From Leptolyngbya sp. SIO4C1 (GTDB lineage Bacteria; Cyanobacteriota; Cyanobacteriia; Phormidesmidales; Phormidesmidaceae), in assembly GCA_010671975.1 (NCBI GenBank), contig JAAHIA010000007.1, positions 1 to 46,112 of the forward strand: a DNA stretch of 46,112 bases, read 5' to 3'. Shown piece after piece: positions 404 through 46,112 of this stretch. Position 1 is the first letter of the stretch; the number at the start of each line of letters is the position of its first letter. The notes under the pieces were generated by a model, which ran no database searches, was not told the origin of the DNA, and saw only the letters and a program-made list of their open reading frames with translations. The translations under genes and the position numbers were made by a program.

Positions 404-703
404 ATAGGCTCGCTTTTGGTATAAGTGAATGGCTTGGGGCACAGGAATTAGCTCGCTTTTCTACTAGAGCTATCTGTGCCTTTTTCTTGGCCGGGTGATA
501 AACCACCTCAGCGGATCGCCGATTGACCTGTCTCATCCGGTTTGGACTTAACCCGACTACCGCTTTGGCGTCACCCGCCTACCTTCACTGTCGCGCAATA
601 GCGTTCTATGGGTTTGAGTGGTATCTGATTCTAGAACGCTGACTCCCATCTATGCCATCTGAAATTGCCTCATAGCAACCTTTTGACCTGCTCGACCCTC
701 TAG

Positions 704-720
704 TTTTGTCAGTCAATCAG
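704..720. repeat. Terminal inverted repeat of the junction-spanning IS (TTTTGTCAGTCAATCAG).
   Basis: Perfect 17/17 reverse-complement match to 45036..45052 (CTGATTGACTGACAAAA). Confidence 0.85.
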
Positions 721-729
721 GGCCAAAGG
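721..729. repeat. 9-bp target-site duplication GGCCAAAGG. The partner copy is 45027..45035.
   Basis: The same 9-mer in the same orientation abuts both IS termini. Confidence 0.8.
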
Positions 730-749
730 TTACCGTATCGTTTAACCAT
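721..749 (-). pseudogene. 5' end of the DGR reverse transcriptase gene (codons 1 to about 9), separated from the body by the IS.
   Basis: The minus strand reads ATG GTT AAA CGA TAC GGT AAC CTT TGG CC (MVKRYGNLW). Removing the IS and one duplication copy joins this in frame to [21 protein letters not shown]... at 45026 downward. The ATG lies 2 nt after the avd stop codon. Confidence 0.8.
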
Positions 750-751
750 AG

Positions 752-1108
752 TTAGGAATTGACGATTGCCTTTTGATGCTGCTGCCGCATCCAACCACCT
801 AGCTCCTGACCAATACTATCAATTAACTGACTGACATATTGGTATCGCCGTGCTGACATCAGCTCAAATTCAAATAACAGACGAGTTTGGTGACGTAGCA
901 GATCTAATCGGCCATTCAGGGCCTTCAACCTTGGCAGCTTGTCACTGCTGTATCGAGCAAGGATCAATCCTTCGAGCAAATCGTAAAGACCAGTGATAAC
1001 GCGATCGCCGAGCAGAAACTTATGCTCGCGGGGCAGCTTATTGAGAATAGGCACGTACCACTTCACCAAATCGTAGGTTTTTTGGACGATCGGCAACTCT
1101 CGCTTCAT
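752..1108 (-). CDS. avd: DGR accessory variability determinant (Avd), a four-helix-bundle protein.
   Basis: 118 aa. It shows the typical Avd / 23S-rRNA-IVS-protein pattern (MKRELPIVQKTYDLVKWYVPILNKLPREHKFLLGDRV...IDSIGQELGGWMRQ). It sits between a VR-bearing target gene and the RT start. Confidence 0.8.
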   Translation of the reverse strand: MKRELPIVQKTYDLVKWYVPILNKLPREHKFLLGDRVITGLYDLLEGLILARYSSDKLPRLKALNGRLDLLRHQTRLLFEFELMSARRYQYVSQLIDSIGQELGGWMRQQHQKAIVNS

Positions 1109-1156
1109 CTATCTCGCAGAAAAGAACTTTCGTACTATCGCCGATAGAGCGCCAAA

Positions 1157-1182
1157 GGGCAAGAGGGCAAAAGGGCAAAGGG
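1157..1182 (+). other. Conserved four-G-tract motif directly 3' of the target-1 stop codon.
   Basis: GGGCAAGAGGGCAAAAGGGCAAAGGG on the + strand. Near-identical copies lie at 9011..9036 and 42763..42788. It is absent next to the template repeat. Confidence 0.7.
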
Positions 1183-4100
1183 CTAGTCCCTCGCGAGCCC
1201 GCACACCACCCGAAAACCGGTGTCGTTGAACCTGAAGTCGGGCGCGTCCCCGAAGCGGAACGCCGACCGGCAGAACCCAGGATCGTCGTCCCAGGAACCG
1301 CCCCGCAGTACACGACTTTTTTTGCTCTTGTCAGAGGATATCCAGGCCGAACCATCTTCCGGGGCTCCTTCATAGGTATCATGCCAGTAATCTTCGCACC
1401 ATTCCCACACATTGCCGTGCATATCATATAGACCAAAGGCGTTAGCAGGGAAACGGCCAACCACAGTTGTCTTACCGCGATATTCCCCAATGGGACCCTC
1501 TCCAAAGGCAGACTGAGCACCATAGTTTGCTAAGTCTGCGGCAATGGTTTCACCAAAGTGGAACGGAGTTGTGGTGCCCGCACGGCAGGCATATTCCCAC
1601 TCAGCTTCGGTGGGGAGTCGATAGTCTTTGCCCGTCTTGGCGGAGAGACGTCGACAAAATTCTTGCGCATCCTCCCAACTCACTTGCTCAACAGGAAGAT
1701 GGTTTCCCTCAAAGTTTGATGGGTCAGGATCTAAATTTCGTTTCGACCCCAAATCTGACTGATTGGCCCCGTGCTCAATGGCCGTCCGAAAGTTCCTCTT
1801 TTTGACTGGTATACCTAAAGCATCAGACAGCACAGACCATAACTTAGTACCAGCATCTTTCAAAGAGCTGGCTTGATATGGCACTTCCGATGCCATGCTC
1901 TGGTATGTCTGCTGGTTCCAGGATCCTTCAAGAACAATCCTTTCAATATCTCGGAGTCCTTCCGCCCGAATCGAGCGGACAGCTAAATCAGCCGCTTGAA
2001 GGGCTTCCTCAAAGGTTTGTATGGCTTTCTGGCTGGCTGCTGTTGCGATTGCTCGCCACTGGGCCTGAGTAACGGGATAGCGACTCATATAAAACGGTTG
2101 CAGCGTCACTTCGTGCTGAGGACGCTCATCGTCAGTGCTCCCTGATTCTTCCTCCGGTGCTCCCATCATGAAGGTGCCGCCAGGGATAGCCACCATCTCC
2201 AAGTTCAGATTATCGTCTGTATCCGTATCCTCTCCGAGGGACTCGATATACCCCCAAGCCTCTGCTTGACGGCGACGGATTACCCATTCCTCTGATTCGC
2301 GATCGCGCTCTAAGGTGGCCGTCTCAAACTCAAAAGCGTGTTTGAGCAGAGTAATGATGGTCGGCGATTTAAAATCAAACGGCTGCAGCGGTGGAAAGTT
2401 GAGAAACTCGGCCACTTCGTAATCAACCGTGTGGAGCGGAAAGTTATCTTCGGTAGTCTGCTGGGGCTGTCGTCGTCGCTCCGCAGGCTGCACCACGGTG
2501 GCATATCGTTGGGCCAAGGCGGCATGAGGTCCTCCCAGGCGTTGCAAGACATCAAGGCCCACCGCAGCCAACGGTAAGGCTCCCTCGCCCAGGGCATCGC
2601 CAGTCGCTTCATAGGCTGCTAAAAAAGCCTCAAAACTCTTAAGCGTATTCCCTGCTCTGTCTCTGATCAGTTGAGAGAGCCGATCTAACACTTCCAGAGG
2701 GCGGGAGATCGGCACACTATCGAGTAGCAAGTATCGAACTCGCTGGGACTGATCACCGGGATCATCATCGCCAAAAAACTGGTAGCGGCATTGCCCTTCT
2801 TCCTCCTCGTCACACCGCTGAAGCAACCCGCTAAGGAGCACCTCAGCAACATGCTCTTGCCGCGCCTCTGGCACGAATTCATCCCGCAGCAGGTCAATAA
2901 CCGGCAGGCTCACTGGAGTTGCCGCCATGTATTCTGCTAACTGCTGTGCCATTTCAGAAGCCGCAGACCGAAACAAGGCTACCCGTTGTCGAGCGGTCCG
3001 AGATCGTACCGGAGCAGTTGATTTTGCTTGATATTCCTGCGCAATTTGACGCACCGATTTAAGCTCAAACACCCGACCGGGAGTCAGCGTTCCACCACTA
3101 CCTGCAATGACCCGTGCCCACCGATGCATCGCATGAGGTTCGAGCGTCACAACAGGAACGGTCAGCAGGCGTTGCTCACCATTTGGCGTCTGACCATTGG
3201 CGGGAGTTTCATCAGCTTCATCCCACTGATCCCAGACTTCCAGATTAGGCAGCCCTTCAACTTCCAGGCGAGAACTTGGTAAGCCTGAACCCGTCGTACC
3301 CAATCGGACAATATGACCATTGCTGAGAGCCGTCCGAGTCCATAATCGTTCGGGGAACAGTTGAACAATAGAAACCGGCTGTGCTTCCGCCCAGGCCCAA
3401 AGCGTTTCGTGAATGAGGCCTCGCCACCACAGAGCCGAGGTGCAATCTGTTAGCAGTAGGATCATTCTCCGACTACTGGGATCGAGTAGCTCGCGAGGGC
3501 TATGGGGTCGCTGATACTGACAGGCTTCAGGAGGCTCTCGCCAGCGGGGAAAGAGCATGAGATCTCTGGGGCTAGCTGTTTTTAGGTCAGGCACCGATAA
3601 TCGCCAGGTGCGAATAGTTCTAAAAGCACCTTGATACTCCACTAAGTGTTGCAATTCAGCGATCGCCCGCTCCCACACTACCGTTGTTTTGGAATCTTCT
3701 ACGACCAGTTCCAGATCTAGCCACCGCTCTGGCTGAGCCTGAACTACCGGCACCCAGAGCCGAGTTTCCGCAATTTGGGTAACGGTCGCTTCTTCATCTA
3801 GTTCCTGACGGATACGGGAAGGCACTTTGCGCATCAGGGGTCGGAGCGATCGCGCCAGATCCAGCCGAGTACGCAAGGCTGGCGCAGCCGGTACCGGAAA
3901 CGGGGTTCCCGGAGGTGGCTCCTCTTCCTCTTCTTCTGTCACTGAGGAAGGTTGTGATGGTTCGTCACGGCGATCGTCAATGTAGAGATTAGCGGTTGGC
4001 GTGTCACTGGCAGTAGCGGTACCCTCGTCTACTGTTTTAAGGGGCTTGGGCTCTGCCCCTGGGTGAGGTTCAGAAATCCCATCTGAACGCGCAGATCGAT

Positions 4101-4233
4101 CTAGCTCAATAAATTGAGCTAGCCAAAACATATCGGCCAAGTCAACCGCATCGAAGTCGAGGCCGAGCTGCTGCCTCAGCTTTTGCGCTGATTGTCCGAT
4201 AGTTGGTCTTCGCTGCTGCTCAGATGCTTCCAC
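1183..4233 (-). CDS. vWA-type protein of the MoxR/protease system with a C-terminal FGE (C-type-lectin fold) domain. DGR target 1.
   Basis: 1016 aa. The N-terminus (LRQQLGLDFDAVDLADMFWLAQ) resembles the SAV_2336-type N-terminal domain found with MoxR ATPases. A central vWA-like region follows. The C-terminus has FGE motifs (RPQHEVTLQPFYMSRYPVTQAQW, RLPTEAEWEYACRAG, GLYDMHGNVWEWCED, RVLRGGSW...[11 protein letters not shown]). The gene overlaps the upstream MoxR gene by 58 nt. Confidence 0.8.
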   Translation of the reverse strand: MEASEQQRRPTIGQSAQKLRQQLGLDFDAVDLADMFWLAQFIELDRSARSDGISEPHPGAEPKPLKTVDEGTATASDTPTANLYIDDRRDEPSQPSSVTEEEEEEPPPGTPFPVPAAPALRTRLDLARSLRPLMRKVPSRIRQELDEEATVTQIAETRLWVPVVQAQPERWLDLELVVEDSKTTVVWERAIAELQHLVEYQGAFRTIRTWRLSVPDLKTASPRDLMLFPRWREPPEACQYQRPHSPRELLDPSSRRMILLLTDCTSALWWRGLIHETLWAWAEAQPVSIVQLFPERLWTRTALSNGHIVRLGTTGSGLPSSRLEVEGLPNLEVWDQWDEADETPANGQTPNGEQRLLTVPVVTLEPHAMHRWARVIAGSGGTLTPGRVFELKSVRQIAQEYQAKSTAPVRSRTARQRVALFRSAASEMAQQLAEYMAATPVSLPVIDLLRDEFVPEARQEHVAEVLLSGLLQRCDEEEEGQCRYQFFGDDDPGDQSQRVRYLLLDSVPISRPLEVLDRLSQLIRDRAGNTLKSFEAFLAAYEATGDALGEGALPLAAVGLDVLQRLGGPHAALAQRYATVVQPAERRRQPQQTTEDNFPLHTVDYEVAEFLNFPPLQPFDFKSPTIITLLKHAFEFETATLERDRESEEWVIRRRQAEAWGYIESLGEDTDTDDNLNLEMVAIPGGTFMMGAPEEESGSTDDERPQHEVTLQPFYMSRYPVTQAQWRAIATAASQKAIQTFEEALQAADLAVRSIRAEGLRDIERIVLEGSWNQQTYQSMASEVPYQASSLKDAGTKLWSVLSDALGIPVKKRNFRTAIEHGANQSDLGSKRNLDPDPSNFEGNHLPVEQVSWEDAQEFCRRLSAKTGKDYRLPTEAEWEYACRAGTTTPFHFGETIAADLANYGAQSAFGEGPIGEYRGKTTVVGRFPANAFGLYDMHGNVWEWCEDYWHDTYEGAPEDGSAWISSDKSKKSRVLRGGSWDDDPGFCRSAFRFGDAPDFRFNDTGFRVVCGLARD
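1190..1309 (-). repeat. DGR variable repeat 1 (VR1).
   Basis: 120-bp alignment to the TR at 43832..43951. I count 17 differences by hand, all at + strand T (sense-strand A) of the TR. Confidence 0.9.
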
Positions 4234-5396
4234 AGGCGGTCAATCAAGTCTCCTGGCTCACTGACTTCGGTATTGATATTAGGCTTACGCTCGCGGGTAA
4301 TCAAATAGATCGCATTCAAAAGCTGATCAGTCGCCAGATTACCTTTGCTGAAGTTCTTGTCGCGTTTACCCACAAACCGTTTAACTAAATCATTGATCTG
4401 CTTCTCAGCCCCAGCAATTAAGGCTTCCCCATTCTCTTCCTGACGGAGGTGAGCCTTCACAATCTCGGTCAGCCGCGTTTCGTCTGGCTCCCGCATGGTT
4501 AAGCGAATACAGCGACGCAAAAACGGGGGTGGAAAATCGCGCTCACCGTTACTGGTCAGAATCATGAGCGGAAACTCGGTGCAAGCAATTCGGCCTTTCT
4601 CTATCTTGGTTTTGCCGTTGACCACAACTGGTTTGTCATCGGTTGCATGATCATTTACGTCTGACGCAATTACCACTGCATCATCGTCTGTCACTGATTG
4701 TTTGTTGAACGTAAATTCTGTATCGTCTTTGTAAGCCGTGCGGACTTCGACCTCAGCCCTAACGTCTTCAATCCGCACCAATTCAGGAATCTCAAACACC
4801 CCTTCCTCAAAGACGTAGAGCAAATCATTAGGCAGGTCAATATCGCTCTTATCGATTTCATCCACAATCAGGATGCGGGGTTTTTTAGAGGGCAGAAGAG
4901 CAGTACCCAAAGGCCCTAGACGAATGTATTTGCCCATGTTGTCAAAGCGGTTTTCGCCACTGCGTTCCTTTTCCGTAGAGTCTTGAAGGCGAGCGATCGC
5001 ATCGTAAAGATATAAACCGTCTTTCAGCGTCGTTCTGGTGGTAATGGGCCAGTACAGCACCTCACCCAGATCTGGCTCCCGGGCAATAGCATAGGCCAAC
5101 GACGTTTTGCCGGTGCCCGGTTTCCCCGTCACGAGCAACGGTCGCCGCAGATATAATGCCGCATTGACTAATTCGATCTCATTGGGCTCAGCCTGAAAGG
5201 TAGCCCCTCGCTCTTGCTTACGGCGATCCGCACGCCGCCAGGTCGGGGGAGCAGGAAGCGCCGCCAGGGGAGGCGTATCACCATTATCGGCAGGAGGCGC
5301 ACCAGTGCCCTTAAAGATGGGCTGGAAGATATCCCGCTGCTTCGCTGGCTCGTCACTCATCGTTTCGTCATTCCTCTCAGCATGCCTCTTGATCAA
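4176..5396 (-). CDS. MoxR-like AAA+ ATPase.
   Basis: 406 aa. Walker A is LLVTGKPGTGKTSLAYAIA and Walker B is ILIVDEIDK. It overlaps both neighbouring genes. Confidence 0.8.
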   Translation of the reverse strand: MIKRHAERNDETMSDEPAKQRDIFQPIFKGTGAPPADNGDTPPLAALPAPPTWRRADRRKQERGATFQAEPNEIELVNAALYLRRPLLVTGKPGTGKTSLAYAIAREPDLGEVLYWPITTRTTLKDGLYLYDAIARLQDSTEKERSGENRFDNMGKYIRLGPLGTALLPSKKPRILIVDEIDKSDIDLPNDLLYVFEEGVFEIPELVRIEDVRAEVEVRTAYKDDTEFTFNKQSVTDDDAVVIASDVNDHATDDKPVVVNGKTKIEKGRIACTEFPLMILTSNGERDFPPPFLRRCIRLTMREPDETRLTEIVKAHLRQEENGEALIAGAEKQINDLVKRFVGKRDKNFSKGNLATDQLLNAIYLITRERKPNINTEVSEPGDLIDRLWKHLSSSEDQLSDNQRKS

Positions 5397-7167
5397 ACGG
5401 CTCCCATGTGGGTGGGATGACTTTGAAATCTTCCCATACCAAGCTTAGATGGTAGCCCACATGAGTCTTGTCTTCACAATCGAGGGTTTCAGAACGCTCT
5501 TCAAAAACCCGTTTCGGCAAATCAATCACTGCACAGTCTAAGAGGTGCTCTAGATCCTGGCATTGAGCATCTTGCCGCGACCACAACGCCACCGGTAGGC
5601 CAACTTTTTTGGCTAAAAACTCAAACACATCTTCAACGCGATCGCTGGCAAGATTTTCCAAAATCGCCAGCTCAGCAGAGCGCAACTGCCTGAGTAAACG
5701 ACCTTTGTTGCTGCAATCTGAACGCACCAAAGCATCGCGAGCCGAAGTTTGGTGCTGCTGCTCTAGACTTTCCCACTTTTGCTGCCAACGGGTGTAGTGC
5801 TGCCTGCCAGTGGGAGATTGACTTAAATCTGTTCGCATCACCAATCTATACTGGTTCCCCAGAGTCAGGCCATCCTGAGTTTCACGCGCATCCAGATCGC
5901 AGCCTAAAAGACGTCGGGCAACGAAACAGTGCATCATTGGATTCTCTAAGGCTGATTCGGCCTCAAGCCACCTCTCCAGGAAAAGCGGCAACTCAACAAA
6001 AGGAACCACTTCATCTTTGAGCCGGGGCAGTGGTGGTTCCAGAGGGTCATAGAGATCGCGATCGCCAATCACCCACAGCCAAATTTTGACATTGGCCGTA
6101 TCTTGCTCATCGGGTTTAATCTGTACGATGAGATGCTCAGGGGCATAGGACGAGGGCAGTTGACGATCCTGACGCGCTTGATTAGCTCTGACATACAGCC
6201 GATCGAAATCAAACCGACGAAATCGCACCCAATTCTCTAATTCCTGTCGCAGGATCTTGGGTAAGCCATCCATTACAGCTAGAAACACCGCAAATTGTGT
6301 CAAGCGATCTACATCGCGCTCTGCTTGCTGCCAGCCCCGATTAGACAGCTGTGTGAGGTACTGCAAGCGCTCCAAGATAGGATCACTACTTGAGCGATTG
6401 CCGTCATCGCACAGCCAAAATGCCAGCTCAACCGCATTTCGCACCCGACTCTCAGCCTCGCTCAGCCCTTGCTCAATGAGGTCATATAGGCTGCGGGCAA
6501 ACAGGTCTTGCAGAATCGGACTGAGCTGATCTTCGGGAATAGCATAGGCTTTGCTCCTCTGCTCATCATTTTGCGGCACCCAAGCCGTGGCAATCATCCC
6601 CACTACACAGTTACGGACATGATTCCAAACCGGAGCACCGCTGAATCCCGACTCAATCGTGTCGTCCTGCGGGGCATCTTTTTTGTGAAACTGGAAACGC
6701 CCGCCTACGGCATTGGCTTTGGGCCTATAGGCATCGGAGCGATCGCCGCTCTCTTGAGCGAAGCCATAGACCGAATGCTCTTCATTCTTAATCTCTTCGC
6801 AAGAACAACGCAGGATAGGAATTGGCTTGGAACGATCTGGAGCAGGTGTGAGTAACTTTAAGGCAGCAACATCGCCTCTGTTTAAGTCATAGGGGAGCCA
6901 AGCCACCACCTGAGCTGGAATGTCATATTCATTGGGCAGAAAATCAAGGGTGACAGTTCCTTCAGGCGGTTGTTGATACTCCGCAAAGTCATCTTCATTG
7001 ACGCCCATTGCTTGCAGCACAACATGGGCGCAGGTCAATACATAACCAGGGGCAACCAAAAAACCTGTCCCCACTACGCTCTTCTGGCCCGTTTCCTGAT
7101 TTTGAAAAAAGATGCGGGCGATCGCGTGTTCGTAATCTTCGCGGCTAAGTTCTACTTGTGCTGCCAC
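5377..7167 (-). CDS. Trypsin-like serine protease with a long C-terminal helical domain (VMAP-C-like).
   Basis: 596 aa with a GTG start. The catalytic triad context is VLTCAHVV (His), GDVAALKL (Asp) and GFSGAPVWN (Ser). The roughly 380-aa C-terminal extension is typical of vWA-MoxR-associated proteins as I recall them. Confidence 0.75.
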   Translation of the reverse strand: MAAQVELSREDYEHAIARIFFQNQETGQKSVVGTGFLVAPGYVLTCAHVVLQAMGVNEDDFAEYQQPPEGTVTLDFLPNEYDIPAQVVAWLPYDLNRGDVAALKLLTPAPDRSKPIPILRCSCEEIKNEEHSVYGFAQESGDRSDAYRPKANAVGGRFQFHKKDAPQDDTIESGFSGAPVWNHVRNCVVGMIATAWVPQNDEQRSKAYAIPEDQLSPILQDLFARSLYDLIEQGLSEAESRVRNAVELAFWLCDDGNRSSSDPILERLQYLTQLSNRGWQQAERDVDRLTQFAVFLAVMDGLPKILRQELENWVRFRRFDFDRLYVRANQARQDRQLPSSYAPEHLIVQIKPDEQDTANVKIWLWVIGDRDLYDPLEPPLPRLKDEVVPFVELPLFLERWLEAESALENPMMHCFVARRLLGCDLDARETQDGLTLGNQYRLVMRTDLSQSPTGRQHYTRWQQKWESLEQQHQTSARDALVRSDCSNKGRLLRQLRSAELAILENLASDRVEDVFEFLAKKVGLPVALWSRQDAQCQDLEHLLDCAVIDLPKRVFEERSETLDCEDKTHVGYHLSLVWEDFKVIPPTWEPFDQEAC

Positions 7168-7225
7168 TTCAACGTAATCTCATAGGTTGCCTCACCACCC
7201 ACTTTTGTAACCACTGCACCCACTT
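7152..7225 (-). pseudogene. 3' part of a small trypsin-co-occurring (Trypco2 / CU044_2847-like) gene interrupted by IS256.
   Basis: The minus strand reads ...AVVTKVGGEATYEITLKWQHK*. It joins in frame to 8622..8880 once the IS and one copy of the 9-bp duplication are removed. Confidence 0.6.
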
Positions 7226-8621
7226 GAGCTATAACCAAAAGTGGTGTACGAGGGAGGCACAAAAAAAGGCGTATCCTTCTGGAAGAGAAAAAGACCAGAC
7301 AAAGGAATACACCATGACTCAAGATAATGTGATCGCATTCAAAACACCAGCATCCGACGAGACGTTCAGTGATGCCCTGAGCGACTTGGTGCGACAAGGC
7401 GCCCGGCAAATCATTGCTCAGGCGGTAGAAGCAGAGCTCAATGAGTTTCTAGCCCACTATCAAGGACTCAGCGACGAGCAGGGCCGCCGAGGGGTAGTGC
7501 GCAATGGCTATCTGCCCGAGCGGACAATAACGACTGGGGTTGGTGAGGTAACGGTACAAGTGCCCAAGGTGCGAGACCGCACCGGTAGCGGCATCAAGTT
7601 CAACTCAAAGCTTTTGCCGCCGTATCTCAAGCGAGCCAAAAGTGTGGAGGAAGTGCTGCCGTGGCTGTATCTCAAAGGCATCTCAGCGGGTGATTTTAGC
7701 GAAGCGCTCGCTTCACTGCTTGGACCTCAGGCCAAAGGGCTCTCGGCCTCAACGATAGGACGACTGAAGGCGAAGTGGCAGCAAGAGCATCAGCAGTGGC
7801 AAAAACGCTCGCTTTTGGACAAGCGCTATGTCTATGTCTGGGCAGACGGCATCTACTTCAACATCCGCGATGATGAACGGCAGTGCATACTGGTGCTCAT
7901 TGGGGTCACCGATAGCGGTCACAAAGAACTGCTGGGCATCGAAGCAGGCTACCGAGAGTCAGCGTTGAGCTGGCAGTCGTTGCTGTTGCGACTCAAAGAC
8001 CAAGGACTGGCGCATGATCCACAGTTAGCCATCGGAGACGGTGCTTTGGGCTTTTGGAAAGCCCTGTCGCAGGTGTTTCCCACAACCAAAGTGCAGCGCT
8101 GCTGGGTGCATAAGACGGCGAATGTGCTCAACAAACTGCCCAAGCGTCAGCAACCCAAAGCCAAGTCAGCCTTGTGGGAAATCTATCGAGCTGAGACCAA
8201 GAGCGAAGCTAATCAAGCCTTCAACCGCTTTGTTCAGACTTATCAAGCCAAGTATCCAGAAGCGGCTGATTGTTTGGCTAAGGACCGAGATGCCCTGCTG
8301 GCGTTTTACGACTTTCCGGCGCAGCATTGGAAGCATATTCGCTCGACCAATCCAATTGAATCGACCTTTGCCACAGTTCGATTGCGCACTGATAAGACCC
8401 GAGGCTGCGTCTCCCAAGCGACGATCCTATCGCTAGTGTTCAAGCTAGTTGAGAGTGCTCAGCAGCGCTGGTTGCGGATTCGGGGCTTTCAGCATCTAGC
8501 CGAGGTGATTGAAGGTGTCTCATTCAAAGATGGTATTCGAGCTGAGGAGACTGATACTGATTTAGACCCGTTGCAGAAGGTCGCCTGATGATGCTAGATA
8601 CACCACATTTGACAATAACTC
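7226..8621 (+). mobile_element. IS256-family insertion sequence.
   Basis: Imperfect terminal inverted repeats: GAGCTATAACCAAAAGTGGTGTA at 7226.. against the reverse complement of the right end, GAGTTATTGTCAAATGTGGTGTA. A 9-bp direct duplication CACCCACTT lies at 7217..7225 and 8622..8630. Confidence 0.8.
7314..8588 (+). CDS. IS256-family (mutator-type) transposase.
   Basis: The N-terminus MTQDNVIAFKTP...ARQIIAQAVEAELNEFL is typical of IS256 transposases. Other landmarks are WADGIYFNIR, IGDGALGFWKAL, QRCWVHKTANVLNKLPK and STNPIESTFATVRLR. The ORF-track start at 7158 is an upstream extension across the IS end. Confidence 0.85.
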   Translation: MTQDNVIAFKTPASDETFSDALSDLVRQGARQIIAQAVEAELNEFLAHYQGLSDEQGRRGVVRNGYLPERTITTGVGEVTVQVPKVRDRTGSGIKFNSKLLPPYLKRAKSVEEVLPWLYLKGISAGDFSEALASLLGPQAKGLSASTIGRLKAKWQQEHQQWQKRSLLDKRYVYVWADGIYFNIRDDERQCILVLIGVTDSGHKELLGIEAGYRESALSWQSLLLRLKDQGLAHDPQLAIGDGALGFWKALSQVFPTTKVQRCWVHKTANVLNKLPKRQQPKAKSALWEIYRAETKSEANQAFNRFVQTYQAKYPEAADCLAKDRDALLAFYDFPAQHWKHIRSTNPIESTFATVRLRTDKTRGCVSQATILSLVFKLVESAQQRWLRIRGFQHLAEVIEGVSFKDGIRAEETDTDLDPLQKVA

Positions 8622-8880
8622 CACCCACTTCGCCGCTGAGCTTGACACTAAATTTCACTTCCACCTCGTCAGCGGGCTGAGTCATGGCATCCACGCGATC
8701 ACGAATGCTCTCGACCATCGGTTTCAAGTTATCAAGGGCCTGGTCAAACGTTTGCTTCGCTTGAGCCGCAATTTCCCCTGGGCGCTTGGAAACAGGCTTC
8801 ACTGCATCCGACTGCACATCCTCAACCTCGATCAGCACCGACTGACCGTTGCCCACATCAAATTCAACAAGTCTTGTCAT
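8622..8880 (-). pseudogene. 5' part of the small trypsin-co-occurring gene interrupted by IS256.
   Basis: MTRLVEFDVGNGQSVLIEVEDV...EVEVKFSVKLSGEVG, then the IS end. The pattern matches small proteins found upstream of trypsin/MoxR/vWA operons (recall-level). Confidence 0.55.
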
Positions 8881-9010
8881 CACACCTTTCCCAGTCAACA
8901 CCCGAGATAAAAACCATATCAGCCCCGGTCATCACTACAAGCTTATTCGCTCCATTTCGGCATACATCCAAAGAAACATTAAGTACAAATGAACTATAAC
9001 AGTTACCAAA

Positions 9011-9036
9011 GGGCAAGAGGGCAAAAGGGCAAAGGG
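9011..9036 (+). other. Conserved four-G-tract motif directly 3' of the target-2 stop codon.
   Basis: GGGCAAGAGGGCAAAAGGGCAAAGGG, identical to 1157..1182. Confidence 0.7.
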
Positions 9037-9825
9037 CTAGTCTCTCGCGAGCCCGCACACCACCCGAAAACCGGAGTCGCTGACCCCGAGGCCGGGCGCG
9101 CCCCTGAGGCGGTCCGCCGACCGGCAGAACTCAGGATTGAGGTTCCAGGAACCGCCCCGCAGTACACGACTATTTTCGCTCTCATCAGAGGATATCCAGG
9201 CGGTGCCATCTTCCGGGGCTCCTGCGTAGGTCTTATGCCAGTGGTCTTCGCACCATTCCCATACGTTGCTGTGCATGTCATGAAGGCCCCAACGGTTGGC
9301 CGGATAATGTCCTACTTCCGACGTCTGGTTCATCGTGCCACGATAATTGGCCAGCTCTGCCGTCAGCCTGTCGCCAAAATGATAGGCCGTTTGCGTTCCC
9401 GCACGACAGGCATATTCCCACTGGGCCTCACTGGGTAAGCTATACGCTTTGCCAGTTTTGGCAGCGAGCCGCCGACAGAACTCTGTAGCGTCTTCCCAAC
9501 TCACCTGCTCTACCGGCAAGACATCTCCCTTAAAGCGAGAAGGGGCCGGATCAAGATCTTTGCCGATACGGTCATAGCCTGCAACGATACGCCACTGGAC
9601 CTGAGTCACTGGATAGCGCCCCATCAGAAACGATGGCACCGTGACTCGATGCTGAGGTTGCTCACTACTATGGCTATTAGGCTCATCTTTCAAAGTCCCC
9701 ATCCTAAATTCCCCGGCGGGGATGAGCATCAGCGTCAGAGAAACATCCTCACTCAGAGCTTCGGTGTAAGCCTTGTTCAGACACCGATAGCGATGCAGAG
9801 TCAGAGCCTTGGAAACCGTCGCCAT
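9037..9825 (-). CDS. Stand-alone FGE / C-type-lectin-fold protein. DGR target 2.
   Basis: 262 aa. Motifs include QPQHRVTVPSFLMGRYPVTQVQW, SLPSEAQWEYACRAG, GLHDMHSNVWEWCED and RVLRGGSW...[11 protein letters not shown]. It lies directly upstream of the protease operon on the same strand. Confidence 0.85.
   Translation of the reverse strand: MATVSKALTLHRYRCLNKAYTEALSEDVSLTLMLIPAGEFRMGTLKDEPNSHSSEQPQHRVTVPSFLMGRYPVTQVQWRIVAGYDRIGKDLDPAPSRFKGDVLPVEQVSWEDATEFCRRLAAKTGKAYSLPSEAQWEYACRAGTQTAYHFGDRLTAELANYRGTMNQTSEVGHYPANRWGLHDMHSNVWEWCEDHWHKTYAGAPEDGTAWISSDESENSRVLRGGSWNLNPEFCRSADRLRGAPGLGVSDSGFRVVCGLARD
9044..9163 (-). repeat. DGR variable repeat 2 (VR2).
   Basis: 120-bp alignment to the TR. I count 18 differences by hand, all at TR adenine positions. 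Confidence 0.9.
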
Positions 9826-16683: not shown

Positions 16684-17439
16684 ATGAATATGTCTGCCTT
16701 GAGCCAAAACATTTTTATGAAATTAGGAATCGTAAGCTCCCTAATTTTAAGTAGCAGCAATGCAGTAGCCGCAAATCAAATCCAAGTGTGGACACCTAAT
16801 TTTGGTTACGAAGCTGGAAGTTGGCGCGTCAGCCAGCACATTCGTACCTTAGCCGATGTGAACGGTGACGGGAAAGACGATATCGTTGGTTTCGGCAATT
16901 CTGGGACGTTTGTCTCCTTATCAACGGGGTCTGGGTTTACTTCTCCTCAGAAGTGGGTCAATGACTTTGGTCGTAATGAGGACGCTGGTTCTTGGAATTT
17001 AGACCAGCACATTCGTACCTTAGCCGATGTGAACGGTGACGGGAAAGACGATATCGTTGGTTTCGGCAATTCTGGGACGTTTGTCTCCTTATCAACGGGG
17101 TCTAGGTTTACTTCTCCTCAGAAGTGGGTCAATAACTTTGGTCGTAATGAGGACGCTGGTTCTTGGAATTTAGACCAGCACATTCGTACCTTAGCTGATG
17201 TGAACGGTGATGGGAAAGACGACATCGTTGGTTTCGGTAATGCCGGGACGTTTATCTCCCTATCGACAGGCACTGAGTTTGTTTCACCTCAGATGTGGAT
17301 CAATAACTTTGGTCGCAATGAGGACGCTGGTTCTTGGAATTTAGACCGGCACATTCGTACCTTAGCCGATGTGAACGGTGATGGGAAAGACGACATCGTT
17401 GGTTTCGGCAATGCCGGAGTTTTTGTTACCACCAGATAA
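16684..17439 (+). CDS. Secreted FG-GAP/VCBS-like repeat protein.
   Basis: A signal-peptide-like N-terminus is followed by four 57-aa repeats containing ADVNGDGKDDIVGFGN. Confidence 0.7.
   Translation: MNMSALSQNIFMKLGIVSSLILSSSNAVAANQIQVWTPNFGYEAGSWRVSQHIRTLADVNGDGKDDIVGFGNSGTFVSLSTGSGFTSPQKWVNDFGRNEDAGSWNLDQHIRTLADVNGDGKDDIVGFGNSGTFVSLSTGSRFTSPQKWVNNFGRNEDAGSWNLDQHIRTLADVNGDGKDDIVGFGNAGTFISLSTGTEFVSPQMWINNFGRNEDAGSWNLDRHIRTLADVNGDGKDDIVGFGNAGVFVTTR
16834..17439 (+). repeat. Tandem 171-bp coding repeats (about 3.5 units).
   Basis: Units start at 16834, 17005, 17176 and 17347 and are nearly identical at the nucleotide level. Confidence 0.85.
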
Positions 17440-18451: not shown

Positions 18452-19024
18452 TTAAGTATCGCTGCCTATACGCCGCTGCCTTAAGGCATTTGTAGTTTGC
18501 AATTCAGCTTGTAACTCGGCCTGGTAGAGCATGACCGCTCGCTGTTGACCTCGCGCTACAGCCGCTTTCAAGTCTGCTTGCGATAGATTTTCCTCAGCGG
18601 CATTGACCTGATCGATTAGGCTTTCAAGGCTCTGGAGCTGCTGGGCAACGGCTAACTCAATATCCGTAGTTTGACTCTGACGTAGAGCCAGGACGCTGCC
18701 GACCTCTTCGGGCATCAACTCACCCTCAATGACGCCAGCACTAGACCACTCTTGTGAATAACGGGCTCTTGCATCGGTCACCCATGCGTCGCGATCGCAA
18801 GTCTCGACTTGAGCGAACTCGTCGAACAGAGAGCGAGCCAGGTCGGTGTAACCCTGCTTGGTTTTCAGCAGAGGCTCGGGGGCAACTTTCCTAAGCCAGC
18901 TAAACCAGCGATTTCGGATGGTGCTATCGCTAACGTTGTACGCCTGAGCGATAGCCTGTGCGGTATGGTGTCCGCCTGTGTGCGCCGATACGTTCGGTAG
19001 CACGTTCGGTTGTGTGCTATGCAT
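18452..19024 (-). CDS. Module A gene 1: HTH plus coiled-coil protein.
   Basis: 190 aa and paralogous to 26109..26690. The C-terminal 110 aa or so are nearly identical (EWS/AGAGVIEGELMPEEVG...QAELQAELQTTNALRQRR). The N-terminus has an HTH-like segment (TAQAIAQAYNVSDSTIRNRWFSWL). Confidence 0.5.
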   Translation of the reverse strand: MHSTQPNVLPNVSAHTGGHHTAQAIAQAYNVSDSTIRNRWFSWLRKVAPEPLLKTKQGYTDLARSLFDEFAQVETCDRDAWVTDARARYSQEWSSAGVIEGELMPEEVGSVLALRQSQTTDIELAVAQQLQSLESLIDQVNAAEENLSQADLKAAVARGQQRAVMLYQAELQAELQTTNALRQRRIGSDT

Positions 19025-26108: not shown

Positions 26109-26690
26109 TCAAGGCTCTACCTCATTGCCTCCCATGCGTCTTTGTCTTAGGGCATTTGTAGTTTGCAGCTCAGCCTGTAACTCTGCTTGATAAAGCATCA
26201 CCGCTCGCTGCTGACCTCGGGCTACGGCAGCTTTCAGATCCGCTTGCGATAGATTTCCCTCAGCGGCATTAACCTGGTCGATTAAACCTTCAAGGCTCTG
26301 GAGCTGCTGAGCGACGGCTAGCTCGATATCTGTGGTTTGCGTTTGACGCAGCGCTAGGACATTACCGACTTCCTCGGGCATTAACTCACCTTCAATCACC
26401 CCGGCACCGGCCCACTCCTGAGAGTAGCGAGATTTAGCATCGAGCACCCACTGCTTGCGATCGCGTTTCTCAACTTGAGCAAATTCATCAAACAACGTGC
26501 GGGCCAGCTCGGAATAACCCCGCTCATCCTTCAGTAGACCGGCGGGGGCGACCTGATTGATCCAATCAAACCAGCGCGTTCGCACAGTTGACTCAGCTAC
26601 ATTGTGCGTCTGTGCGATCTGCTGTGCGGAGTAGTGCACGGCTACGTGCGCTCGGATGTCCGCTAAGGTGCGCGGATCTGTACTATTCAT
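26109..26690 (-). CDS. Module B gene 1: HTH plus coiled-coil protein (paralog of 18452..19024).
   Basis: 193 aa. See module A. Confidence 0.5.
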   Translation of the reverse strand: MNSTDPRTLADIRAHVAVHYSAQQIAQTHNVAESTVRTRWFDWINQVAPAGLLKDERGYSELARTLFDEFAQVEKRDRKQWVLDAKSRYSQEWAGAGVIEGELMPEEVGNVLALRQTQTTDIELAVAQQLQSLEGLIDQVNAAEGNLSQADLKAAVARGQQRAVMLYQAELQAELQTTNALRQRRMGGNEVEP

Positions 26691-27056: not shown

Positions 27057-27320
27057 TATCCATTTTTCTAGAAGCTCAGTTATCAGGTCGCTGAAATCTC
27101 CGCTATGCCTGACCAGCTTAATCTTGACCTCCTCATTCAAAGCCTTCGGAATGTAGGCCCCGACCTGAATGTAATTAGGATCTGATCGCTTACCTGTCTT
27201 CTTACGTTTTTTCGAAGATGATGCAGTAGATTCTGCTGCCTTTTTCAGGTCTGGCTGCTGTTCGTACGACTCAGCCAGATTACTGAACATATCAGCCACA
27301 TCCTTTTTAACCTTAGCCAT
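27048..27320 (-). CDS. Small RHH centromere-binding protein (ParG-like, putative).
   Basis: 90 aa, overlapping the parA stop. The C-terminus YIPKALNEEVKIKLVRHSGDFSDLITELLEKWI is RHH-like. Confidence 0.5.
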   Translation of the reverse strand: MAKVKKDVADMFSNLAESYEQQPDLKKAAESTASSSKKRKKTGKRSDPNYIQVGAYIPKALNEEVKIKLVRHSGDFSDLITELLEKWIAD

Positions 27321-27909
27321 AGGTTTCTAGCTCCTTCCCAAGCGCTTGATATTCACCCCAGGCGATGCGGCCAAACCGATCGCCAGACTCATAGACCGGC
27401 ACTCCCTGTAGAGCCGCCTTCTCATAGGCAGTCAATCGCCTGATTTGCTGCTTGACCACTGTAACGTTTAAGCGCTTAAGCGTTGCTCTAGCGGCATCAG
27501 CAGTTGCCTTTTTTCGACTATCTACCATTGTCAGCAGCACTGCATAATCGCTTAACTGATTAAGCATTTTGACGGTTCCTAGCAGTGCTTCAAGGGCTAA
27601 GGCATCCGGCGTTGTCGGCAGCAGCAGTAAGTCACAGCCCGAGGCGAGTTCTTCGAGCTGGTTATGGTCTGGATGAGCTTCGGTATCAATAATGATGTGG
27701 TCTTTCCCGCGAGACGCTTTAGCGGCACCCATTAAGTCACAAACGGCAAACGGTAGGTTTCCTCGCTTGCTCCAGTTCAAGCTAGAGCGGTTGGGGTCGC
27801 CATCCACTAGCAGCGTATCCGGCGACGATTGGGCGAAGTAGCAGGCCAAATGTACGGCTGTAGTCGTCTTTCCCACGCCTCCCTTGAACCCCGCAATAGT
27901 AATGATCAT
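27313..27909 (-). CDS. parA: ParA-family partition ATPase (small type).
   Basis: The deviant Walker A is MIITIAGFKGGVGKTTTAVHLA. The 198-aa length is typical of small plasmid ParA proteins. Confidence 0.85.
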   Translation of the reverse strand: MIITIAGFKGGVGKTTTAVHLACYFAQSSPDTLLVDGDPNRSSLNWSKRGNLPFAVCDLMGAAKASRGKDHIIIDTEAHPDHNQLEELASGCDLLLLPTTPDALALEALLGTVKMLNQLSDYAVLLTMVDSRKKATADAARATLKRLNVTVVKQQIRRLTAYEKAALQGVPVYESGDRFGRIAWGEYQALGKELETYG

Positions 27910-27989: not shown

Positions 27990-28025
27990 TGGTCGATTAT
28001 CTGGTTAATCGCTTAATCGATTGGG
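27990..28025. promoter_or_regulatory. Second set of TTAATCG motifs upstream of parA.
   Basis: GGTCGATTATCTGGTTAATCGCTTAATCGATTGG has the same motif family as 26795..27056. Confidence 0.45.
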
Positions 28026-28817: not shown

Positions 28818-29342
28818 ATGAAACGCCATTTCTTTACCGCCCTCGCACTGACCGTTGCTACTGTTGCGATCGCACCCACTACCAAGGCCGCTGAATTTGA
28901 ACCCAACATGACGCAGCAAAGCCGCTATGAAGTGCTTGATCGCGGTGGCTCGAAAGCTATCGAAGATATTCAAACAGCCCGCCTAGAGCATTTGGATAAC
29001 CAAACTAAAGCTGTTGAGGATATCCAGGCCGTTCGCCTCGAAGCCTTGGACAGCCGCAGCAAAGGTAACGTCCACACGCTGCGTCTTGAGCATTTGGACA
29101 ATCAATCCAAGGCCATCGAAGATATCCAAGCCGCTCGTTTGGAACACCTCGATAATCAGACCAAGGCGGTCGAGGACATTCAAGCGACTCGCCTAGAGCA
29201 TCTAAACAACCAGAGTAAAGCCGTTGAGAATATTCAATCAGCCCGGCTAGAACATTTAGACAACCAAACCAAGGCAGTCGAAGATATTCAAGCCACCCGA
29301 CTGGATGAGTTAGATAGCCGCAGCAAAGCCGCCGTTCAGTAA
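28818..29342 (+). CDS. Secreted protein built of 18-aa repeats.
   Basis: A signal peptide (MKRHFFTALALTVATVAIAPTTKA) is followed by about 8 repeats of RLEHLDNQ(T/S)KAVEDIQA(T/A). Confidence 0.6.
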   Translation: MKRHFFTALALTVATVAIAPTTKAAEFEPNMTQQSRYEVLDRGGSKAIEDIQTARLEHLDNQTKAVEDIQAVRLEALDSRSKGNVHTLRLEHLDNQSKAIEDIQAARLEHLDNQTKAVEDIQATRLEHLNNQSKAVENIQSARLEHLDNQTKAVEDIQATRLDELDSRSKAAVQ

Positions 29343-42663: not shown

Positions 42664-42762
42664 CGTAGGCTATTGCGACAGCTATCGATTTGTTTGAACG
42701 ACACCAGTCAAATTTCACTACCGCCAATATAGTTTACTTGTACTATCAAACGATCCGCTAAA

Positions 42763-42788
42763 GGGATAGAGGGCAAAAGGGCAAAGGG
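42763..42788 (+). other. Conserved four-G-tract motif directly 3' of the target-3 stop codon.
   Basis: GGGATAGAGGGCAAAAGGGCAAAGGG. Confidence 0.7.
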
Positions 42789-43664
<876 letters not shown>

Positions 43665-43831
43665 ACATCAGCAGATAGGGGGGTGGGTTGAGCAATCGTT
43701 CAGCTGAGCTTACCAGGCTACTCAACCCTGTTTTCTATTTGGATGCTGTCACCAGCATCACCGGAGCTAAGCTGGACTCCCCTTCGCACGCCCGACAGAT
43801 TCCCATCTGCCAGCTCTGGCCCAGAAGAGTA

Positions 43832-43951
43832 CTCGCGAGCCCGCACACCACCCGAAAACCGGTGTTGTTGTTCCTGTTGTCGGGCGCGTTCCTGTTGCGG
43901 TTCGCCGACCGGCAGTTCTCAGGATTGTTGTTCCAGGAACCGCCCCGCAGT
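43832..43951 (-). repeat. DGR template repeat (TR).
   Basis: It lies 20 nt downstream of the RT stop. The sense strand encodes an Asn(AAC)-rich version of the VR peptide ([37 protein letters not shown]). There are 29 sense-strand adenines by my count. Confidence 0.9.
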
Positions 43952-43970
43952 CGGGTTGCCCGCCCCGTCT

Positions 43971-45035
43971 TCACTGTCTCGAAAACACGAGATCAGCAAA
44001 TAGCTTTTGGCGCAATCGCCAGGTGTCAGCATGGTCAAGATGGGCCAGCCAGCTTTGCATTGACCGATCCAACTCTTGAAACCCTATTTTACCGCTAGCA
44101 TAGTCAGCCTGCAGCTGTTTGAGTCGGCGTCTGGCTCGACGCAGGTTTTCGCTACGCACGCGGATACACACATCCTTTGAGCAGCCTTCACCTTTTGGCA
44201 GTATCCGAAATCCCAAAAAGTTAGCACCATGACGAGTCTCAAAGAGTTGGCTTTTGACAGGGTGGACCTTGAGCCGTAGCCCGACCAGGTAATCTTCCAG
44301 GGCAGTGCGGGCCTTAGCCAGAAATCCTTGATCGTCACTAAATAAGGCGAAGTCATCCACATATCGAACGTACTTTTTTACCTGGAGCTGCTCTTTCACA
44401 AAGTGATCGAAGCCGTTGAGGTAAACATTAGCAAAGAACTGACTGGTAAGATTGCCAATCGGCAACCCCCGTCGCCGTTCTAACATCGTCAGCAAATCGT
44501 CTCCTGGAAATAGCTCATGGACTGGAATCTGCTCATTGCTGTGGTCAATGATGCAGTCAATCAGCCAAAGCGTATCCGGGCATTTAATCTTGCGCCGCAC
44601 GATCGCTTTGAGAATGGTCAGGTCAATGCTAGGAAATATTTTTGGATATCGCACTGCAGCACATAGGGCGTGGTGCGCATAAATTGAATGAGCCGCTGTA
44701 GCGCCCGGTGGGTGCCATAACCAATACGATTGGCATAGGAGTCATCAATAAAGGTGCGCTCGAAAATGGGCTGAATGATATTGCAAAGGGCATGGTGGAC
44801 GACACGATCGCGATAGGGAGCCGCAGAAATCATCCGTAGTTTAGGATCGTAGATTTCAAAGGTGGTATAGCCTCCAGGCTTATACGTTTTATGAGTAAGC
44901 TCGGCCTGAAGAGCTAACAGCGCTGACTCCAGACTGTAGTTGAATCGCAAGACACTTGCCTGCATCCGTTTGCCCCGCTGGGCATTGCGAGCCGCCAGGA
45001 GCAGGTTCTCAAAGTGAATGACCTGAGGCCAAAGG
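43971..45035 (-). pseudogene. DGR reverse transcriptase body, with its 5' end removed by the IS and a 1-nt frameshift.
   Basis: [21 protein letters not shown]..., [41 protein letters not shown] (DGR-type motif) and [11 protein letters not shown]. The frame breaks at about 44632..44633 (QKYF then PSID needs one more C). Confidence 0.85.
45027..45035. repeat. 9-bp target-site duplication GGCCAAAGG (partner copy 721..729).
   Basis: See 721..729. Confidence 0.8.
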
Positions 45036-45052
45036 CTGATTGACTGACAAAA
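45036..45052. repeat. Terminal inverted repeat of the junction-spanning IS (CTGATTGACTGACAAAA).
   Basis: Reverse complement of 704..720. Confidence 0.85.
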
Positions 45053-45053
45053 G

Positions 45054-46112
45054 TTATTCAGGCGCGTATGAGTACGTTAGTACTCTGAACTCCAGACGAT
45101 AGGCTCGTTTCTCGTGTTGTTTGCGCGAGGCCATCGCCGGGTCAGGGTCACGATTGGTTGTGAAGCTAACCTTGCGGACAATGCGCCAGCCTTGCACAGC
45201 AGCAGCCTTGAGCCAGTCCCAGCCAATGCGAAAGTAGCTGCTACCGCGAAACCAGTGGGCATCGACCCAGCGACGCTGATGCTCAGCGACAACCTGAGTG
45301 CCCTGAGCGGTGACAAACAGGGTTGCCAGCGCCAGAATGAACCAGAGTCTAGACAGCGCACAGACCGAACGAATCTGCGACTTTTGCAGATTCCACCCGC
45401 TGGATTGGTCGTCTCGGAAATTCTGCTCAATGTCGAACCTCAAAGCGTACTCACAGAAGGTCTGCAGCGTGGTCGGCTGATCGCTGACAATCGCCCAGAA
45501 CTCGCCGTTGAGGTTGTTGCGCCCGAAGGCGATGTGGACCGGGCCGTAGCATTGCCCTTTGTGGATGCGAACGTTGTGAAAGCACAGCGCTTCCCCACGC
45601 TTGAAGTGAATGTCCTTGAGCTGTGACCATCCCTTGCCAGCACGCCATATCCAGGTGTTCTTCTTCAACCGGATACGATAGTGCCAGCCCCACTGCTGGC
45701 TGAGGGCTCGCATCAAGTCTGTGTGCACAAAGCCTCGGTCAGCCAAGAGCACTACCTTGAGACCCACTGGCAAGCACTCGGCGGCTTGGTGCAAGAGCGC
45801 TTCGTACTCAGCAAAAGCCACCGCCGCGCTGCTATGGTGCAGCACCCGCCAAGCCACTGGCAAGGCACGACCGCGATGGACCACCGCCACCCGTATCAGG
45901 CAGTACTCGTCCCAGAATAGTGAAGTATCCAAGCTCAAGAAGAGGCACTCGTCTTGCCATTCGCTGATGGCAGCCTGTATCAGCGGCTTGTATAGCTTGT
46001 GGACATTGATGCGAGCATTGTTGAGCCAGCGCTGTACCCGCCTTTGCTTGCTTTGAGCGTAGCGACCTCGACTGGGTAGATAGGGCACCCAGCGAGTGAG
46101 GTTCACTTCTCC
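45054..46112 (-). CDS. IS4-superfamily DDE transposase, catalytic part. The frame stays open to the window end.
   Basis: [30 protein letters not shown] and [16 protein letters not shown] give D, D and E/K landmarks of IS4-like (DDE_Tnp_1) enzymes. [16 protein letters not shown] resembles cyanobacterial IS4-family N-terminal regions. Confidence 0.75.

Follow-up and report, generated by a model that had tools for sequence, protein, structure and literature searches.

A diversity-generating retroelement with three diversified targets and an interrupted reverse transcriptase gene in a plasmid-like record of Leptolyngbya sp. SIO4C1

The contig JAAHIA010000007.1 of the cyanobacterium Leptolyngbya sp. 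SIO4C1 (assembly GCA_010671975.1) is a complete NCBI record of 46,112 nt, and was analyzed over its whole length; it is referred to below as the window. It carries a diversity-generating retroelement (DGR), all on the minus strand, consisting of one template repeat (TR), three variable repeats (VRs) located at the 3' ends of three target genes named T1, T2 and T3, an avd gene and a reverse transcriptase (RT) gene. The RT gene is interrupted by an insertion sequence (IS) and, further downstream, by a frameshift. The repeats are described first, as they carry the trace left by the element, followed by the genes that would have produced it, by the damage to the RT and by a related lineage in which the same cluster is found uninterrupted.

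The four 120-nt segments were read on the minus strand, and the TR was compared by computer, without gaps, to each of the VRs. The TR (43832..43951) is non-coding, contains 29 adenines and begins 19 nt past the RT stop codon. VR1 (1190..1309, in T1), VR2 (9044..9163, in T2) and VR3 (42796..42915, in T3) differ from it by 17, 18 and 13 substitutions, respectively. All 48 mismatches (48/48) fall on TR adenines, and none of the three VRs differs from the TR at any of the 91 non-A positions; for random placement over a TR in which 29 of 120 bases are A, the probability of this result is about 2.5e-30. The same counts had been obtained by hand in an earlier reading of the letters alone (the sequence-only reading), and a spread of substitutions over all four TR bases, named there as the finding that would speak against a DGR, was not seen. 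By type, the mismatches comprise 22 changes from A to T, 21 from A to G and 5 from A to C, and at 25 of the 29 adenines one or more of the VRs carry a change.

The position of the adenines is far from uniform with respect to the codons. Codon positions 1 or 2 hold 28 of the 29, and eleven AAC codons and one AAT codon are present, in agreement with the earlier remark that the adenines sit mostly in AAC codons; the VR translations quoted with that remark were also correct. No stop codon can be reached by any substitution of a TR adenine, and the theoretical repertoire amounts to about 5e15 peptides per VR or target. The homology has sharp edges, beginning exactly at 43951 and ending exactly at 43832. 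Its last 31 nt at the 3' side, A-poor and GC-rich, are identical in TR and VRs, divergence being found only past 43832, so that the mismatch between an initiation of mutagenic homing sequence (IMH) and its TR counterpart (IMH*) is absent from this shared segment in all three VRs. The VRs had been described as the last 120 bp of three genes: they do lie at the gene 3' ends, but not literally so, as each stops 4 nt short of the target stop codon. The window was also scanned on both strands, ignoring the A positions: only these four copies of the repeat were found, and a fifth copy, i.e. a fourth VR, was not.

The three targets are paralogues, and their identity climbs toward the 3' end, from 40-70% to 85-93%, so that some gene conversion between them is plausible. 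An origin of all four repeats by ordinary paralogy (duplication and gene conversion), with an A-bias due to coincidence or composition, is however extremely improbable. It was rejected because one base out of four takes all the differences, at the p-value given above, and because near-clonal metagenome contigs, described below, vary at the VR A-sites; moreover, the invariant copy sits outside the target genes, next to the DGR RT and Avd, and 72 TR-VR pairs from related loci show the same A pattern. As a separate observation, the increase in nucleotide identity among T1, T2 and T3 takes place in their 3' halves, within about 300 nt of each stop codon, over the 180 nt that precede the VR. A TR of 120 nt does not extend that far, which suggests either gene conversion or occasional longer homing tracts.

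The targets share the type of domain that carries the VR. T1 (1183..4233, minus strand) encodes a protein of 1016 aa, with a SAV_2336-type N-terminal region and a C-terminal FGE-sulfatase/C-type lectin (CLec) domain, whereas T2 (9037..9825, minus strand, 262 aa) and T3 (42789..43664, minus strand, 291 aa) contain the FGE-sulfatase/CLec domain only. PF03781 was matched at the C-terminus of all three by Pfam, with E-values from 3e-50 to 5e-63, and T3 also matches TvpA (2y3c, E 1.7e-20) and PvdO (5hha). The N-terminal 500 aa of T1 score 398 bits against NF041121 SAV_2336_NTERM; its orthologue contains HTH_VMAP-M9, and a vWA domain was not matched in T1 by Pfam.

The avd gene (752..1108, minus strand, 118 aa), already located at these positions by the sequence-only reading, scores 134 bits against the NCBIfam equivalog NF033474 DivGenRetAVD (cutoff 80) and 70.7 bits against PF22296 bAvd (cutoff 40), and gives a weak match to Bbp7/Avd (4dwl). 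The RT, repaired in silico as described below, is 361 aa long and contains both the IGNLTSQ motif ([I/L]GxxxSQ) and the YVDD motif (YxDD). It aligns from residue 1 to bRT of the Bordetella phage (8ub7), which is its best relative of solved structure (170 bits, E 6.6e-49); the best group II RT reaches 59 bits (4e-15), and group II and retron RTs in general give E-values of 4e-15 or weaker.

A different picture could be drawn from the NCBIfam matches of the RT fragments, among which group_II_RT_mat comes first (67.8 and 55.2 bits) and Drt3a and retron St85 come next, as though the RT were that of a group II intron or a retron, or else a defence RT (DRT), lying near the repeats by chance. All these matches are far under their cutoffs of 200-300 bits (67.8 bits against 300 for the best one); no DGR-RT family is found among the NCBIfam RT matches, and this search yielded no family assignment. 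The idea has next to no chance of being correct, and was discarded, as bRT outscores the group II RTs by 170 to 59 bits, the [I/L]GxxxSQ motif is present, RT homologues are regularly flanked by avd and by an A-biased TR, and Rfam, at gathering thresholds, detected no group II intron or retron RNA in the whole window. A grouping of the RT with those of group II introns or retrons, the other finding named in the sequence-only reading as speaking against a DGR, was thus not obtained. The earlier description of an RT with the DGR-specific IGNLTSQ motif is therefore upheld, as is, given the A-only footprint, the Avd, the bRT-like RT and the CLec targets, that of the locus as a DGR with one TR and three A-mutated VRs.

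Relatives were collected by scanning one genome per species, which produced 193 hits; 80 loci, almost all of them cyanobacterial, were kept. The closest RTs, at 84-85% aa identity, are from Leptothoe and Nodosilinea. A-biased TR-VR pairs were detected in 50 of the 80 loci, for a total of 72 pairs, and in these the TR begins at a median distance of 30 nt past the RT. The usual layout has one VR-bearing gene before avd and another after the TR. The order of RT and TR and the presence of multiple targets are thus the norm within the clade: the location of the TR 3' of the RT, pointed out from the letters, is correct, but usual for this RT clade and nothing special.

The TR is followed directly, on the same strand, by 147 nt of a structured, Sp-like RNA (43685..43831), which is more conserved than the adjacent coding DNA. 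Its predicted helices include a hairpin with a 9-bp stem (43813-43805/43800-43792) and a GGGA loop of the GNRA type, and three more helices supported by covariation (43830-43825/43781-43776, 43761-43754/43747-43741 and 43728-43718/43695-43685). Over 26 relatives, the four helices are paired in 97.3% of the cells, as compared to at most 53.6% when partners are slid; compensatory changes are found in 23 of 38 pairs, and none of 500 shuffles reaches the observed values. A long-range duplex is predicted to bracket the TR, by pairing 43958..43967, on its 5' side, with 43772..43762, on its 3' side (minus strand); it covaries on a 50-sequence alignment which includes the 5' flank. All of the predicted helices can be formed by the sequence of the window itself. 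At gathering thresholds, Rfam gave no match anywhere in the window, the RNA 3' of the TR included. An Avd-binding stem-loop and a duplex named 'cPRT Stop' have been described for DGRs of Cyanobacteriota by Handa et al. (bioRxiv 10.1101/2023.10.23.563531), and the predicted elements correspond to these: they represent known biology, which is intact in the window. Separately, pairing of a purine-rich segment of the Sp-like RNA (GAAGGGGAGUCC) with the VR flank was considered and dropped, being poor and inconsistent by eye.

Whereas the RNA elements are intact, the RT gene is not. Its first 9 codons (MVKRYGNLW, plus 2 nt) are found at 721..749, minus strand, 2 nt past the avd stop, and align to bRT from residue 1; the remainder, from about codon 10 to codon 361, with both RT motifs, is at 43971..45035, minus strand, near the other end of the record. 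An IS4-family element sits after codon 9 and spans both record ends. Its 3' part (45036..46112, minus strand) comprises an inverted repeat at 45036..45052 and a transposase at 45054..46106, and its 5' part (1..720, minus strand) comprises the matching inverted repeat at 704..720, both 17 bp long, and an IS21 IstA-like N-terminal fragment at about 402..1. The two inverted repeats are flanked by a 9-bp direct repeat, CCTTTGGCC, present at 721..729 and at 45027..45035, as expected of a target-site duplication. When the element is excised in silico, together with one copy of the direct repeat, ATGGTTAAACGATACGGTAACCTTTGGCC, located 2 nt past the avd stop, is joined to TCAGGTCATTCACTTTGAG, and a 361-aa RT is obtained, with an avd-RT junction which aligns to the uninterrupted junction of the relatives. 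On the basis of the inverted repeats, the target duplication and the uninterrupted junction in the relatives, the insertion of an IS in the RT gene is regarded as certain. Since matching repeats flank the IS at the two ends of the record, these ends must be physically linked, and the record is circular or close to it. A further observation concerns the composition of the inserted sequence, which is IS21-like over the first 720 nt and switches to IS4-like exactly at the record ends; this suggests that one IS is nested in another, perhaps in a form that the assembly represents incompletely.

On the 45035 side, the conserved N-terminal segment of the RT is present without a start codon, and abuts the 17-bp repeat at 45036..45052. 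Between the end of the IS and the conserved FENLLLAAR segment, no ATG, GTG or TTG codon occurs in frame. A second lesion is located near 44632..44638, where the window reads AAATA-TTTCC and five close relatives read AAATAYTTYCC, i.e. a 1-nt deletion. The deletion splits the gene into two open reading frames, 44618..44965 and 43971..44654, the second of which resumes with PSIDLTIL in the other frame, and is predicted to shift the frame between the RT motifs. A programmed frameshift was considered for this site and rejected, because all relatives keep one open frame there. An intact RT gene, as found in the relatives in the form of an uninterrupted 361-aa RT, is therefore lacking in the window copy. 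Two statements of the sequence-only reading have to be modified as a consequence. The gene order avd-RT-TR holds across the record ends, but not as a contiguous arrangement, given the intervening IS; and the element is not complete, its RT being cut off from its first 9 codons by the IS4-family insertion and frameshifted by 1 nt.

The genes next to T1 identify the setting in which the DGR is found. A MoxR-like AAA ATPase (4176..5396, minus strand; PF07728 AAA_5) lies directly upstream of T1 and overlaps its start, and is preceded by a trypsin-VMAP protein (5377..7167, minus strand) with Trypsin_2, VMAP-M1 and VMAP-C domains. The third component, a Trypco1 adaptor, is truncated by a second IS: its 5' part is at 8622..8901, minus strand, and its original last 20 codons, approximately, are at 7152..7225. 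The element inserted in its 3' end is of the IS256 family (7226..8621, plus strand), with inverted repeats at 7226-7248 and 8599-8621 and a 9-bp target duplication, CACCCACTT, at 7217-7225 and 8622-8630; its excision in silico restores the canonical C-terminus and a 107-aa Trypco1, as in the metagenome orthologues. The MoxR ATPase and the VMAP effector are thus present, and an intact Trypco1 adaptor is not. When both ISs are removed, the three targets belong to one co-oriented cluster of about 11 kb, and the ancestral order reconstructed from the sequence, all on the minus strand, is T2(VR2) - Trypco1 - trypsin-VMAP - MoxR - T1(VR1) - avd - RT - TR and RNA - T3(VR3). The three targets on one small replicon, as counted in the earlier reading, are thus not scattered over it. 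This setting matches the one reported by Dore et al. 2024 (PMC10907252), where one long and one short CLec target are typical of related clades, and where the targets are proposed as antigen sensors, with no experimental test; this type of system, a MoxR/VMAP ternary conflict system in which a DGR diversifies the sensor, is attributed there to Kaur et al. 2020.

Direct observations on how such a cluster behaves were obtained from metagenomes. Ten metagenome contigs, labelled L081-L090, were reached through the 90%-identity cluster to which the VMAP protein of the window belongs; they come from JGI (3300005957, 3300025384, 3300005973 and 3300025348), ENA (ERZ27249346, ERZ27249351, ERZ27249354 and ERZ27249357) and Logan (SRR6201972/3). 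Two pattern scans of metagenomes, one with the VR scaffold carrying N at the A-sites and one with the VR 3' end plus its flank, gave 0 matches each. The contigs contain the cluster free of ISs, in the order T2 (262 aa), Trypco1 (107), trypsin-VMAP (597), AAA (372), T1 (1018), Avd (118), RT (361, intact), TR and T3 (290). They align to the window at 84-88% nt identity, with breaks in the alignment located precisely at the two IS sites; this confirms both in-silico reconstructions. From the order it also follows that VR2 is no remote target but part of the first gene of a single cluster.

The contigs are 99.5-100% identical to each other, and nearly all the differences are at TR-adenine positions of the VRs. 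Compared to L081, L086 shows 39 differences over 8,339 nt, 18 of them at A-sites of the T2 VR and 21 at A-sites of the T1 VR; L087 shows 21 over 7,790 nt, all at A-sites of the T1 VR; L088 shows 14 over 6,342 nt, of which 13 at A-sites of the T2 VR and 1 elsewhere. A polymorphism of the VRs limited to these positions in population data had been suggested as a check in the sequence-only reading, and it is what this sister lineage displays (39/39, 21/21 and 13/14). Since such A-restricted differences are found among near-clonal contigs, the lineage diversifies in nature. The T2 VR is present in three alleles and the T1 VR in two, and T1 and T2 are rewritten independently. For T3, a single allele was observed in the three contigs that reach it; the targets may be rewritten at different rates.

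The templates of the two lineages are not the same, differing by C58T, C73T, C90T and G103A. At the non-adenine positions 58, 73 and 90, all three VRs of each lineage carry the base of their own TR. As the VRs follow the TR of their own lineage, transfer from template to VR must have gone on after the two lineages split.

Downstream of the VRs, a pyrimidine-rich array of octamers was found directly past the stop codon of each target, on the minus strand: CCCTTTGCCCTTTTGCCCTCTTGCCCTTTGG at 1152..1182 for T1, and arrays of the same kind at 9006..9036 for T2 and at 42758..42788 for T3. The sequence is identical or nearly so in the three places, despite the 40-70% identity of the coding DNA of the paralogues. 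Arrays consist of 3-5 octamers, with a consensus of about GCCCTYTT and a period of 7-8 nt. Similar arrays trail the VRs throughout the RT clade, including its members from Thiomargarita and Thiotrichaceae, and are absent from the TR flanks. The mean pyrimidine fraction of nt 11-50 past the homology end is 0.80 for 71 VR flanks versus 0.37 for TR flanks; for the background it is 0.49 +/- 0.09, and a value of 0.8 is attained in only 0.33% of background windows. CCCTTT is present in 56 of the 71 VR flanks, as opposed to 2% of background 60-mers, and the spacing between CCCT copies peaks at 7-8 nt and at multiples thereof. When arrays with at least 3 CCCTYT were searched for in 862 kb, 33 were found; a detected VR lies no more than 60 nt upstream of 24 of them, and most of the remaining 9 adjoin VRs missed by the detection filter.

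When no mismatch distinguishes TR and VR within the 3' segment, recognition must extend downstream (Wu et al., PMC5758913). As an IMH/IMH* mismatch is lacking here, the array is a candidate for the recipient signal. That it marks recipients in this clade, in the role that IMH and cruciform play in the DGR of the Bordetella phage, is put forward tentatively, at clearly less than even odds; a role in the mRNA, either in stability or in termination, is equally possible. Searches of the accessible literature for pyrimidine-rich or CT-rich elements of DGRs, and for the motif strings, turned up nothing relevant.

Taken together, the data point to a DGR of a cyanobacterial RT lineage (clade 5E of Dore et al. 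2024), placed within a MoxR/VMAP/Trypco ternary conflict system on a plasmid-like circular record, whose diversification process has stopped in the window copy; the probability of this interpretation is estimated at roughly 0.8. The identity as a DGR rests on Avd and RT, on the FGE/C-type lectin targets and on the covarying RNA 3' of the TR. In the working element, the TR and its flanking RNA would be transcribed and bound by RT and Avd; reverse transcription would start from a primer inside the 3' RNA, with random nucleotides being inserted opposite adenines, and the cDNA would replace the homologous 120 nt of each target, rewriting about 16 codons of the CLec ligand-binding surface. These steps are inferred from the full set of parts, the footprint, the population data and established DGR biology.

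For the window copy they are best put in the past tense. The IS4-family element splits off codons 1-9 of the RT and a 1-nt frameshift follows, so that, barring an RT provided in trans, the three VRs are probably frozen alleles, and the earlier description of a DGR 'acting' on three targets is probably wrong here, the RT being broken twice. The inactivation would be recent, given the 0 non-A differences at 3 x 91 sites and the intact state of Avd, TR, RNA elements and the three targets.

Several points weigh against a stopped process. The frameshift of the RT could be a sequencing error. Translation from an internal start, or read-through from the IS, might still yield an RT short of its 9 N-terminal residues. 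A second DGR RT, closely related to this one, may be encoded on the host chromosome. The absence of non-A divergence between TR and VRs fits continuing activity equally well. Finally, some nested IS sequence may be missing from the record at the junction. A DGR that is still active, either with a frameshift due to assembly error and a slightly N-truncated RT being expressed, or served in trans by the RT of a second genomic DGR, would agree with the lack of any non-A difference between the TR and any VR, and with the preservation of Avd, TR, RNA elements and three targets; duplicate or closely related DGR cassettes are known in some cyanobacteria (PMC7517822, PMC10907252). Continued activity is nevertheless considered unlikely, though by no means negligible. 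The IS insertion is certain, and it deprives the RT of its start codon and of residues 1-9, which are conserved in bRT and in all the relatives, leaving no in-frame start as far as FENLLLAAR. The 1-nt deletion is the sole frameshift in the cluster of about 11 kb, the rest of which shows none in comparison to the metagenome orthologues, and it fits the decay of a gene that had already been disabled. The reading of a recently disabled DGR is therefore preferred.

The remainder of the record has a plasmid-like gene content, with ParA, a tyrosine recombinase and similar genes. In a plasmid database, the RT/TR/T3 region gave only weak matches, to Nostoc, and the exact Avd sequence had no entry in the assembly index. 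The HIP1 octamer palindrome GCGATCGC, a cyanobacterial signature, occurs in 35 copies over the whole window, versus about 1 expected. A 30-nt motif rich in TTAATCGATT is present in three copies, at 26809-26929 and 27993-28022, which flank parA (27313..27909) and are candidate partition sites or iterons. A non-coding direct repeat of about 490 nt (14009-14500 and 22277-22766, 8.27 kb apart, 84-95% identity) contains a 31-nt inverted repeat (14246-14276 and 14351-14381); it is possibly a miniature inverted-repeat transposable element, or else it forms the boundaries of a mobile or duplicated segment. Two open reading frames of about 190 aa, 18452..19024 and 26109..26690, share a 300-nt repeat at 81% identity (18458-18757 and 26124-26423); they have no Pfam match, and are judged to be paralogous genes from this similarity. 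Tandem repeats were also noted in the gene of an FG-GAP repeat protein (16684..17439), with three 171-nt units at 16810-17426 on the plus strand (85-93% identity), within the open reading frame 28818..29342, with 54-nt units at 28953-29328 on the plus strand, and as a 42-nt pair at 11392-11475.

The locus was compared to known systems. DGRs of clade 5E (PMC10907252, PMC7517822) share with it the RT lineage, the FGE-sulfatase/CLec targets, the presence of several targets per cassette, a long target after the MoxR ATPase along with short CLec-only targets, the trypsin-VMAP effector and the Trypco1 adaptor; carriage on plasmids and nearby transposases are also reported for them. The window differs in that its RT is interrupted by an IS and frameshifted, and its Trypco1 is truncated by a second IS. 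Cyanobacterial DGRs located on plasmids, with several targets, remote ones among them, and with transposases in the vicinity, were described by Vallota-Eastman et al. 2020 (PMC7517822), as was a degraded cassette in Anabaena sp. 90. No report was found of a cassette with an inactivated RT and a pristine TR together with three pristine VRs.

The DGR of Bordetella phage BPP-1 (mtd-avd-TR-brt) also features A-specific transfer from TR to VR into a C-terminal CLec fold, the pair of Avd and RT, a structured RNA which immediately follows the TR and includes a capped stem-loop of 9 bp, and a duplex bracketing the TR. In the window, however, the order is avd-RT-TR instead of avd-TR-RT, and the 3' RNA is not followed by the RT gene; the targets are three instead of one, in a cellular conflict system and not in a phage tail fibre, and the three VRs have no IMH/IMH* mismatch and are flanked by a pyrimidine-rich octamer array and not by a GC-rich hairpin. 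The TvpA DGR of Treponema denticola resembles the window for its FGE-sulfatase-type CLec target, as indicated by the match of T3 to 2y3c, and for several targets being served by one TR (PMC5758913). It differs by host phylum and RT clade, and because TvpA is a surface lipoprotein, whereas the targets of the window belong to a predicted NTPase-dependent conflict system.

As a DGR, the locus adds little, since cyanobacterial DGRs with multiple targets, carried by plasmids and linked to MoxR/VMAP are already catalogued (PMC7517822, PMC10907252, PMC5758913). Its interest lies elsewhere. It would be a clean natural case of a DGR switched off by an IS in the RT, with TR, Avd, RNA and three diversified targets left pristine, and as such a snapshot of the 'fixing' of chosen variants, an idea raised in PMC7517822. 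The sister population offers unusually clean field evidence of retrohoming, with contigs of 6-8 kb that vary almost only at the adenine sites of the VRs. The VR-specific array, for its part, is a concrete and testable candidate for the feature by which recipient and donor may be told apart in this clade.

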